From Candidatus Gastranaerophilales bacterium (lineage in GTDB: Bacteria; Cyanobacteriota; Vampirovibrionia; Gastranaerophilales; Gastranaerophilaceae): 64,000 bases of DNA. The DNA lies in NCBI GenBank assembly GCA_944325525.1, contig CALVAK010000009.1:23574-87573 (forward strand), written 5' to 3'. Under the pieces are notes generated by a model, which ran no database searches, had not been told where the DNA came from, and saw nothing but the letters and a program-made list of their open reading frames with translations. Shown here in pieces: positions 28,701 through 30,883 of this stretch; positions within the stretch are counted from its first letter, which is position 1, and each line of letters opens with the position of its first letter. The translations under genes were made by a program, and so were the position numbers.

Positions 28701-30883
28701 CAAAAACAACATCGGAGCTTCTACAGGATGCTATAAAAGGCACTGAATTTGAAAGTTATATAATTATTGACGATATAAGCAGATGTATAGATTACGCCTA
28801 TAACCGATTAACAGAAAAAGGCGTACAACTTACAAGAGAAGACATAATTCAAATTTCTGAAAAGATTGGTTATTCCGATACTAGTATCATAGACTTAACA
28901 GGAAGGACAAATGAATTTGGAAAAGCATATATGCTCTCTAAATTGATGGACAATTCTTCCGTAAGTGAAGATGTAATGGCATCAATAACAAAAGAGATAA
29001 CAGAAACAGCAATATTTAATATTTCATACAGGGATCATTTTACAGAAATATTAAAAGCATCAAATTTAGCTAACGATGCAGAAGTATATGAAAAAATTGC
29101 AAAAAGTATCACTGAAGGTAAAATTTCAACTATTGGAGCAGACATAATTTTAGAAAATATTGAGTCTTTTACAAGTAGTGATATAAAATTTATTGTAGAA
29201 AATTTTGCTGATAATGATTTCTATACGGAACAAGAATACATTCAAACGTTTTTATATTTCAAAAATCTGCAGACAAACAATGGTACCAGGATATTGAATA
29301 TGGACGAGATTGCCAATAAAATTCAACAGTTTGGCATGGGTGATACAGCTGCAAATATAGATACAGATGCTATTTTATATAAGAATATAAAAGCAATGAT
29401 GGATATAGACCCGTCATCTGTAAATGCCAGCTATATGACAATGCTTATTGATTTAATTCAAAGAGGTGATGTAAATGCCAGTGCATTGCGTTCTCTTGAC
29501 AGCGTAGATAATTTAAAATCCCTTCTGTATTCACTTGCGGGAGAGGAAGACCCAAATCCTATCAATAGTGATGACAAGTGGTCATTTTCCCCAAATTTAA
29601 TAAATGATATAGATAAAATGTGTAATGTAATTGCATCTAATCAGAATAAAGTAGATTTACAATCTGAACTTTTAGATGCTTTCATTCCGAAGGTACAACA
29701 GGATTCTGAGGGAATAAACAAAGTTAATATTGGCGATGTATTTAAAATTGAAGGTGAAGACGGAATAAGAATAAAATCTTCTGATACAGAATCTGTATTA
29801 TTAAATATTTCTGAAGAAACATATTATAAATTATTCCCGCCTGTTGAAAGATATGCAACTTCGCAGCAAGTATTGGGCAATTGTTATTGTATAGAAAATA
29901 TGATGCTGTTATATTCGCTTCCCGACCAAAGAGTCAAATTACTTGAAATGTTTAGTGAAGATGACGCCGGAAATATTAAAATAAAATTGCCTGGTAGTGA
30001 TTTTGAGATTGTTTTTGAAAACGGTGAATTCCCAGAAAATCAGCAGGCAGATTTATATTCAAGCGGTGCAAAAGGATATAAAATGCTTGAATATGCTTAT
30101 GCTAAAGTATTAGTGGAAGATGAAATCAAAAAAGCTGTTCAGAATTTATCCGGTGAAGAATTATCGGACTTTTGTGAGTTTATTGAACAAAACCCGAATA
30201 ATGTATTTGTATATCAGAATGAAAACGGTCAAATATCCTATATGAAATATACTGAAGCATTTGAGCAAAACCCGAAATTAATAGAGGAAGTATTAAAAAC
30301 AAGAAATGGAAGTGACAGTCTCTTTGGAACACTATATCCTACATTTGCTTCAACATTATCCGGTAATGGCGGTACACAAGTTGGGGTATTAGGGTGTTTA
30401 GGTTATGAATCTTCTCTTTATCTTCCGTCTATGGAACTCCCTTCAGATAGAGAGATAGATTTACAAATAGAAGAAATAAAAAATAACCCGAATCTGGATC
30501 AAGACACAAAAGATGTTACTATTCAATGTCTTGAAGGAATTAAAAATATGACACCTGAAGAAAAGCAAGAATATCAACAACAAATAGAAACAATATATAA
30601 AACTTATGAAAATTATGGGGTTGAAAGAAATAAAATTAAAACAATAGATGAAACCCTAAACGAGAACTTAAAGAATCCCAACTTTTATAAAGAAAACATT
30701 GTGCAACTCGGAATAGGGGGTCATGCCTATGGTTTAACATGTGAAACGGATTCAAACGGAAATATTGAATACTATTTGTATAATCCTCATCATCAGGGTG
30801 TTCCTATCAAAATAACAGATATAGATGCATTTTTTGAAAAGGAAGATTTAATACAATTTATGGCCATTGCGGAAAGGAAATAA
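25742..30883 (+). CDS. very large multidomain protein: RTX-like repeats, hydrophobic hairpin, tandem helical repeats, C-terminal calpain-like cysteine peptidase domain
   Basis: Single ORF from 25733; the ATG at 25742 lies 10 nt after AAGG. The motifs are described in the findings: TGKGNDNIRI-type repeats, the IISIAGITCIIAGAVISFAFPPAAGVGMSLMTAG hydrophobic hairpin, and QQVLGNCYC ... GGHAYG ... LYNPHH. Confidence 0.7.
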   Translation: MSSESVNLNSSSNIRQLLSNNNIEMSDEELLSVFSDSMNSETSGVGELASEWIIVEAEENKTLGFLWKTGTYTYNTSSEVEITLEDTENVQILENSETGEVIVIGADGAKIKSGSKDATLKIYDSNIEKIETGKGNDNIRIYNSNLTNINTGKGTDSITIEDSVVDNLNTGSGNDFVSVSDSEISGINTSSNFLWGILDNGEDTIFLENTEANEIKTGRGSDNIIATDSAIDTLKTGGGSNLLNINETQIDNLKTNKKDMTIYNSSYLDIDKETISKIKSDAQITLEDGSVISVNDYTNYILSQEIGFQTEEEYQEYVISVMTSNLESMKSTFEHQEDADGAVSDGYNLVKELSGLGITSDDAEAMIAEQEAIIEGLTAALNGKTTMSFEEAYEYYTGTVYSQEKIDKYMEVSQMYSAVMVGCQYDEDYIDKFEEATGKSIEDISKEYALCQSDTFGKSTGLQNLVEKYADDQNTFADKLSSIISIAGITCIIAGAVISFAFPPAAGVGMSLMTAGRYISLSGMFVNNAMDLVDDSTDADGLTKEEIADIALETGVEAVSYASGRTIGKFTNGLNTLVSGKAASAGMGNIGSHIAGQTVETTADTVMSLGADFVIAQGQSLITTGEFMTADDYWSMDRFLGEGKNQLIGILTGLASGKINSYQQGIYASAAAKLSNEDPASIKQYMENSGLSNAQIDKFFEGIDIETVAKNSTLTAADNPTLSKMLAENKLTAETADIFAKYGLSDSQIKKAQNMIADGLTPNEAAICANYNLSSKMYNNARKISDNNADISFAVAANISKNSDVYNMLCSERITLEDASIYAARNFNTSQIKAAMEFKNKYPETNTSQAAIISSNKTISKMFETGKILNIEDAVIYSEMGLTKFQVQNAQKLQQDEQLSTSAASILVRNEVVFNMYKKGEITSLDDALQYAQDYKYKGEVIKAMAEKEKTQSSSNSSALLGNIVQSSTTRNNAVSSSKSPRIEGSSKTTSELLQDAIKGTEFESYIIIDDISRCIDYAYNRLTEKGVQLTREDIIQISEKIGYSDTSIIDLTGRTNEFGKAYMLSKLMDNSSVSEDVMASITKEITETAIFNISYRDHFTEILKASNLANDAEVYEKIAKSITEGKISTIGADIILENIESFTSSDIKFIVENFADNDFYTEQEYIQTFLYFKNLQTNNGTRILNMDEIANKIQQFGMGDTAANIDTDAILYKNIKAMMDIDPSSVNASYMTMLIDLIQRGDVNASALRSLDSVDNLKSLLYSLAGEEDPNPINSDDKWSFSPNLINDIDKMCNVIASNQNKVDLQSELLDAFIPKVQQDSEGINKVNIGDVFKIEGEDGIRIKSSDTESVLLNISEETYYKLFPPVERYATSQQVLGNCYCIENMMLLYSLPDQRVKLLEMFSEDDAGNIKIKLPGSDFEIVFENGEFPENQQADLYSSGAKGYKMLEYAYAKVLVEDEIKKAVQNLSGEELSDFCEFIEQNPNNVFVYQNENGQISYMKYTEAFEQNPKLIEEVLKTRNGSDSLFGTLYPTFASTLSGNGGTQVGVLGCLGYESSLYLPSMELPSDREIDLQIEEIKNNPNLDQDTKDVTIQCLEGIKNMTPEEKQEYQQQIETIYKTYENYGVERNKIKTIDETLNENLKNPNFYKENIVQLGIGGHAYGLTCETDSNGNIEYYLYNPHHQGVPIKITDIDAFFEKEDLIQFMAIAERK

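Follow-up and report, generated by a model that had tools for sequence, protein, structure and literature searches.

The analysed sequence is a 64,000-nucleotide stretch of a Candidatus Gastranaerophilales contig (CALVAK010000009.1), referred to below as the window. Its forward strand carries a long gene for a toxin-like protein whose last ~350 residues resemble calpain (peptidase family C2). In public gene calls the gene occupies nt 25742–30883, starts with ATG and encodes 1713 residues. The mechanical open reading frame (ORF), nt 25733–30883 on the same strand, starts with TTG and encodes 1716 residues; it was the basis of the residue numbers in an initial annotation, made from the letters alone, that had described a protein of about 1.7 thousand residues, and its numbering is followed here. 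An A-run at nt 25722–25745 apparently has one A more than in the relative P0002, whose protein starts MNKCGKMSSES. The extra A would leave the upstream ATG out of frame, so that the start is the ATG at nt 25742 or the TTG at nt 25733. A protein identical to that of the window (P0001) is present on 13 public metagenomic contigs with its neighbours unchanged. Nine nucleotides past the toxin stop codon begins a gene for a 94-residue protein (nt 30892–31176, forward strand), which is a candidate immunity or inhibitor protein. The toxin-like gene is flanked by nadB/nadC and by genes for a permease, a glycosyltransferase and mini-RNase III, all of them with housekeeping functions. A scan of the sequence for promoters and terminators gave counts no higher than in shuffled sequence and was uninformative.

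The calpain-like peptidase core spans nt 29864–30880 of the forward strand. The three motifs that the initial annotation had read as a Cys/His/Asn signature lie exactly where it placed them. The motif QQVLGNCYCIENMMLL starts at residue 1378 with a Gln and includes Cys1384 (codon TGT, nt 29882–29884); GIGGHAYGL starts at residue 1660 and includes His1664 (codon CAT, nt 30722–30724); and LYNPHHQG starts at residue 1682 and includes Asn1684 (codon at nt 30782–30784). A GNGG segment lies between them at residues 1544–1547. The order Gln-Cys-His-Asn, with the oxyanion-hole Gln in front of the Cys, is that of family C2, and the residues align with the motifs of calpain-9 and m-calpain. Immediately upstream, at nt 29645–29860 of the forward strand, is a beta-rich pre-domain (GDVFKIEG...IRIK...NISEETYYKLFPP), which was recognized in two alignments (A1 and A2) and precedes the core throughout the wider family.

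Alignment A2 combines the window domain with 44 short family members, 45 sequences in all. The Cys and the His are present in 45/45, the Gln in 44/45, and the Asn in 39/45, with Asp in the other 6. The flanking columns are also well kept, the Tyr of HAY in 42 and the Pro after the Asn in 43 of the 45 sequences. Catalytic columns that are nearly invariant in 45 homologs indicate that the motif pattern is more than a chance occurrence.

Homologs were not found readily. A word-indexed search with the tail fragment alone gave no matches, and a full-length query and an exhaustive scan were needed. The full-length query found 39 relatives. The tail is common to P0002 (89% identity) and P0003 (60% over residues 1013–1716), and its Cys-bearing half is matched by P0033–P0037 at ~36% identity. 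The tail of P0024 shares 28% identity with the window domain (pairwise E = 4e-10), carries QGHLGDCWLVSAIDNM, HACHAYSL and LTNPWNT in that order, and scores above the curated Peptidase_C2 cut-off (26.6 vs 23.8 bits). The window domain itself fails this gathering threshold, and P0036 and P0037 score 17–20 bits. Peptidase_C2 is matched by 5/9 homologs in the first set and by 27/44 in the broader set. With the last 427 residues as query, the exhaustive HMMER scan returned 391 clusters at E <= 1e-3, 204 of them at E <= 1e-10. In these clusters the domain forms the C-terminus of proteins as long as 5889 residues and also occurs in proteins of ~480–600 residues.

When the A2 profile was compared with the PDB, calpains made up 9 of the 11 matches, among them calpain-9 (E = 2.9e-07), m-calpain (2.7e-04), and calpain-1 and calpain-8 (2e-03 to 4e-03). 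The alignments to calpain span QGxLGDCW, the SGG...F.GG segment, GHAYS and NPW. A profile of the window subclade alone reaches the Cys lobe of P0024 (E = 1e-07) and the His/Asn lobe of P0056 (E = 7e-14). All significant profile matches are to calpains or Peptidase_C2, and none is to another clan CA family. The homologs, the profile matches and the conserved columns together indicate that the domain is calpain-like though divergent, and that the motifs hold its catalytic residues. The comparisons support the view that the tail is a real, very divergent cysteine protease domain of the calpain type, and the assignment first made from three short motifs thus holds up through the homologs.

The spacing of the catalytic residues follows a graded series. 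Between Cys and His there are 157 residues in calpain-9 (read from the profile alignment), 165 in P0024, 190 in P0035, 280 in the window protein and 335–342 in P0033, P0034, P0036 and P0037; within the carrier family described below, the gap grows from 165 through 190 and 280 to 342, and across the homologs as a whole the distance from His to Asn holds at 18–22 (18 in P0024, 20 in P0035 and in the window protein, 20–21 in the other four). The distance from His to Asn is 24 in calpain-9. In the wider family of A2, the two distances are 176–331 and 19–22. An insertion had been suspected from the long gap, and two insertion sites could be located. The first, of ~65 residues (~1472–1535, nt 30146–30340, forward strand), lies between the conserved LEYAY helix and GNGG; P0024 and P0035 show a gap there and other members vary, and in the model it consists of a helix, a beta-hairpin and further helices. 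The second, of ~55 residues (~1572–1627, nt 30446–30613, forward strand), separates the GNGG segment from the His strand and, from the alignment and the model, comprises three helices. Both vary in length among lineages, and they account for ~120 extra residues between Cys and His.

A first structural model, built from 9 sequences, was mediocre, with a predicted local distance difference test score (pLDDT) of 76.3, although the pre-domain exceeded 90 in it. The AlphaFold2 model from 45 sequences (nt 29780–30880) reached a pLDDT of 89.7 and a predicted template modelling score of 0.85. In this model a helix begins at Cys1384, a strand begins at His1664, and Asn1684 lies just past the next strand, which is the layout of papain-fold enzymes.

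The toxin-like protein belongs to a family with one conserved N-terminus and exchangeable tails. This N-terminal carrier covers residues ~1–710 (nt 25742–27860, forward strand) and shares 48–66% identity with relatives that bear other tails; the BLASTP alignments stop at residues ~700–740 in about 25 homologs. The tails among the 39 carrier-sharing homologs include PRTase-CE (four times), RelA_SpoT, HD, FHA, an anthrax-LF-like domain (ATLF), RHS and Peptidase_C2. Close relatives thus combine a single N-terminus with unrelated C-terminal domains, as is the case in polymorphic toxins. The closest N-termini, those of P0004–P0010 (61–66% identity), are followed by other tails, whereas P0003 has the same tail (60%) with an N-terminal identity of just 51%. 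This discordance between N-terminal and tail similarity points to a swapping of tails. Downstream of each tail type lies a small ORF particular to it, and tails of the same type are followed by the same ORF. The toxin-like layout proposed for the single protein is thereby supported and extended to variable tails, each with a gene of its own. Two loci, L006 and L007, contain tandem toxin-like genes (1846–5280 and 5839–9450) with different tails, the second gene aligning with the carrier; each gene is followed by its own small ORF (140 and 153 residues).

The gene downstream of the calpain-like tail conforms strictly to this pairing. A member of the 94-residue protein family adjoins the calpain-like tail, 4–30 nt downstream, in 12/12 homologous loci examined as well as in the window. 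The association was found in both directions. Starting from the tail, partner homologs were found at the P0003 locus (63% identity) and at L020, L021, L023 and L025; starting from the partner, the upstream gene ends in a calpain-like domain at L029, L030, L031, L032, L033 and L034. P0056, a protein of 488 residues that lacks the carrier, adjoins a 73-residue protein matching the profile of the family (E = 1e-08). In the carrier-family loci examined, the family was not found downstream of other tail types. It comprises 24 clusters of 68–96 residues with the conserved motif K[ST][DE][FY]xN[SA][YP][TQ]RY[ILS]xE, lacks a signal peptide and matches nothing in Pfam, NCBIfam, PADLOC or PHROG. The tail-specific small gene is again a feature of polymorphic toxin systems, in which it would confer immunity. 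The more canonical tail of P0024 has a different neighbour, an ORF of 112 residues; this ORF was considered as a member of the family and rejected, as it shows no clear membership. Locus L027 (5425–9237), from a goat-caecum metagenome-assembled genome (MAG), encodes a 1270-residue protein with two tandem calpain-like domains and no carrier N-terminus, and no homolog of the 94-residue partner was seen downstream of it.

The carrier is almost confined, in reference genomes, to MAGs of Candidatus Gastranaerophilales, which were recovered from the guts of humans, chickens, goats, roe deer, rabbits and mice. Residues ~120–270 (nt 26090–26545, forward strand) contain, by sequence register, ~8 repeats of exactly 19 residues with a TGxGxD turn. 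Three repeat stretches with the same GTGNDxI motif align with PDB entry 3p4g ("Antifreeze protein") in a search with the family profile (E = 6.6e-04). The repeats had been described as of the Ca-binding type. Their presence and their match to 3p4g stand; 3p4g is a beta-helix with bound Ca2+ from the ice-binding adhesin of Marinomonas primoryensis, which would support that description. The 19-residue repeats are then probably a Ca2+-binding beta-helix. Further on, residues ~481–530 (nt 27173–27322, forward strand) are strongly hydrophobic, with a Kyte-Doolittle peak of 2.37 over residues 478–518, and would fit the membrane hairpin suggested earlier; this region is highly conserved across the carrier family, and Gly-rich amphipathic segments extend from it to about residue 660.

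A variable linker (nt 27861–29644, forward strand) connects the carrier to the pre-domain. Its residues ~710–1010 (nt ~27860–28760) consist of degenerate helical repeats with the pattern ...L[ST]..[DQ]A.IYA..GL[ST]..Q[IV]..AQ..., which occur only in the window protein and P0002. Residues ~1013–1300 are common to P0003 and P0011, the latter aligning with residues 1041–1295 at 56%. P0011 (947 residues) contains this pre-tail region and ends just short of the protease domain, and is possibly a copy that has been truncated or degraded.

We propose that the locus encodes a polymorphic toxin armed with a calpain-like protease warhead, together with its cognate immunity or inhibitor protein, and put the probability of this reading at roughly 65%. 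The ~710-residue carrier of this gut Melainabacterium protein, built of the 19-residue repeats, a helical region, the hydrophobic hairpin and the Gly-rich amphipathic segments and continued by the variable linker, would serve in export or delivery. The last ~350 residues would act as a divergent clan CA, family C2-type cysteine peptidase with two insertions between the Cys and the His/Asn lobes, in which Gln1378 is predicted to form the oxyanion hole and Cys1384, His1664 and Asn1684 the triad. After delivery by a route that the carrier would provide, the warhead may be toxic by cleaving one or more proteins of the recipient cell. The 94-residue protein, presumably co-transcribed with the toxin, would confer immunity as its cognate partner, most likely by binding the protease in the cytoplasm of the producer and inhibiting it there.

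Several observations weigh against this proposal. The signature Trp residues of calpain are absent from the window protein, which has NCY for DCW and NPH for NPW, and the Asp of GDC is replaced by Asn. In A2 the residue after the Cys is Tyr in 38/45 and Trp in 3/45, and the residue after Asn-Pro is Trp in 25/45 and His in 9/45. Pfam gave no PF00648 (Peptidase_C2) match to the window protein even at E <= 10; NCBIfam, PADLOC and PHROGs gave nothing meaningful for it; and phmmer with the tail against the PDB returned noise only (CagL, E ~0.03). In the carrier, Pfam and NCBIfam detect neither a signal peptide nor a known trafficking domain, and no secretion domain or linkage to a secretion system was seen, the carrier having no Pfam or NCBIfam match and the neighbours being housekeeping genes. 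In addition, the 94-residue protein could be a chaperone or an activator instead of an inhibitor.

The fold comparison also falls on this side. Foldseek against the PDB, with both models, gave no significant match to calpain or to any papain fold. The closest entries with a papain fold, USP28, ZUFSP, Cif and GtgE, reached no better than E = 0.1–1.5, with template modelling scores of ~0.1–0.2. The top match of the confident model was Yersinia YopQ (8brf), which, at E = 7e-03 and a probability of 0.93–0.96, is not significant; it covers 74–81 columns at 22–26% identity, and the part of the model concerned may be one of the helical insertions. A Foldseek check had been suggested by the initial annotation: the search itself yielded no significant papain or calpain match, while the local topology of the confident model is consistent with a papain fold. 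We weighed the profile matches above the negative Foldseek result because they are significant and specific, and because the core carries ~120 inserted residues.

The best of the other explanations, which we nevertheless consider unlikely, is a host-directed effector, whose tail would cleave proteins of gut cells and whose small partner would be a secretion chaperone or cofactor. Gastranaerophilales inhabit animal guts, as the sources of the MAGs indicate, and calpains are enzymes found mainly in eukaryotes (PMC4631099). The top Foldseek match, YopQ, is a type III protein, and the weaker matches include the effectors Cif and GtgE, yet none of these matches is significant. A chaperone should follow the carrier, whereas the small gene follows the protease even where the carrier is missing, as at P0056, and a tail-specific small gene for every tail type is the pattern of immunity. 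The sister tails also argue against a target in the animal host, since RelA/SpoT, PRTase-CE and HD domains are typical of interbacterial or conflict toxins.

Slightly less probable is a papain-like fold with another Cys chemistry, such as that of a deamidase, a transglutaminase or acyltransferase, or an enzyme removing ubiquitin-like modifiers, in place of endopeptidase activity. The weak Foldseek list would fit it, as it names the deubiquitinases USP28 and ZUFSP and the deamidase Cif and no calpains; the canonical Trp residues are replaced, and the large insertions could alter the substrate cleft. The exclusive match of the significant profiles to calpain and Peptidase_C2 points the other way, as does the conservation of Gln, Cys, His and Asn, including the oxyanion Gln typical of peptidases.

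It is quite improbable that the domain is an autoprocessing or release protease, comparable to the cysteine protease domain of MARTX toxins, which would free another part of the protein without being toxic itself. The unannotated ~600 residues between carrier and protease (710–1300) could in principle be such cargo; however, the domain stands at the extreme C-terminus, in the slot that unrelated enzymatic toxin domains occupy in the sister proteins, the same domain and partner gene are found in ~480-residue proteins without a large cargo, and a dedicated inhibitor gene would be unexpected for a release protease. A chance likeness of motifs or an inactive pseudo-protease, to which the lack of a Pfam or PDB match of the window sequence alone and of a significant fold match would lend itself, is hardly credible in view of the 391 related clusters, the invariant Cys and His, the nearly invariant Gln and Asn and the significant match of the family profile to calpains.

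The proposed toxin can be compared with the known bacterial homologues of calpain. These are rare and usually C-terminal, lack the Ca2+-binding sites of the protease core, and in occasional fusions adjoin the toxin-trafficking modules WXG100 and Tox-PL or HemolysinCaBind (Rawlings 2015, PMC4631099); their rarity agrees with the remark in the initial annotation that such domains are uncommon in bacteria. A reviewer of that paper considered the WXG-fused calpains to be probably secreted toxins (PMC4631099). Like these homologues, the window protein has the Gln...Cys...His...Asn order, the QxxxG[DN]C, GG, HAY and NP motifs, a C-terminal position in a long multidomain protein and a rare, patchy distribution, and some of them, for example in Gloeobacter, also have Ca-binding repeats N-terminal to the peptidase (PMC4631099). 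Unlike them, it falls below the Pfam threshold, contains ~120 extra residues between Cys and His, and has Tyr and His for two Trp. Tpr of Porphyromonas gingivalis is a characterised bacterial calpain homologue. Nor does the survey of Rawlings 2015 (PMC4631099) describe a carrier restricted to Gastranaerophilales or a small partner gene downstream of the peptidase.

Polymorphic toxin systems were the subject of Zhang, de Souza, Anantharaman, Iyer and Aravind 2012 (PMID 22731697), as cited in PMC4631099. Papain-like proteases that act as interbacterial toxins and come with immunity proteins are likewise established, for example the toxin cleaving GyrB/ParE (PMC12136450). The window locus is like polymorphic toxins in its conserved N-terminus, swappable enzymatic tails, tail-specific small downstream gene and discordant N-terminal and tail similarity. 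It differs from them in its carrier, in which neither an LXG/WXG, PAAR, Rhs core or TPS domain nor a signal peptide was detected, in its host lineage, the uncharacterised Melainabacteria, and in its warhead, which is of the calpain type and not one of the Tox-PL families. Staphopain with staphostatin and calpain with calpastatin are pairs of a protease and its inhibitor. As with staphopain and staphostatin, a small cytoplasmic protein is encoded beside a clan CA cysteine protease, which, from the gene arrangement, it presumably restrains; unlike the known inhibitors, the 94-residue protein has no sequence similarity to any in Pfam or NCBIfam. Calpastatin is mentioned in PMC12136450. The repeats resemble 3p4g in their 19-residue period and the xGTGNDxI turn within residues ~120–270, and differ in that the window protein has only ~8 of them, at the N-terminus of a toxin-like protein.

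Our literature search found no paper on toxins of Gastranaerophilales or on polymorphic toxins of the calpain type, apart from what the reviewer of Rawlings 2015 had noted. New here are the divergent subfamily with its many insertions, the carrier specific to Gastranaerophilales and the dedicated small partner family. Bacterial calpains are almost uncharacterised, and here one appears as an interchangeable toxin warhead with a partner gene, a clear functional setting that suggests the role of at least one branch of them. The core itself, very divergent, tolerates 20–180 extra residues between its lobes. The 94-residue proteins form a new family of small proteins and may be natural inhibitors of the calpain type, and the lineage-specific carrier gives a hint of the means by which uncultured Melainabacteria of the gut compete with their neighbours.

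A further step can be taken only tentatively, at somewhat worse than even odds. The proteins of 73–96 residues may be a new family of inhibitors specific for calpain-type proteases, a functional analogue in bacteria of calpastatin or staphostatin, and the carrier may at the same time be an unrecognised, possibly self-inserting delivery module. If both are true, gut Melainabacteria would have an interbacterial weapon without a described secretion apparatus.

Two further coding regions of the window were noted. At nt 14441–19813 of the reverse strand is a 1790-residue protein without a Pfam match, with a start resembling a signal peptide, long Asn/Gly/Thr-rich repeats, and a C-terminus that looks by eye like an autotransporter beta-barrel. 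This neighbour was considered as a second copy of the toxin and rejected, being unrelated to the toxin-like protein. At nt 269–1765, 2006–3526 and 4164–5687 of the forward strand are three tandem paralogs of ~500 residues, each of which combines Kelch motifs (Pfam Kelch_6, E ~3e-07) with a hydrophobic segment and an N-terminal leader rich in Asn and Glu.

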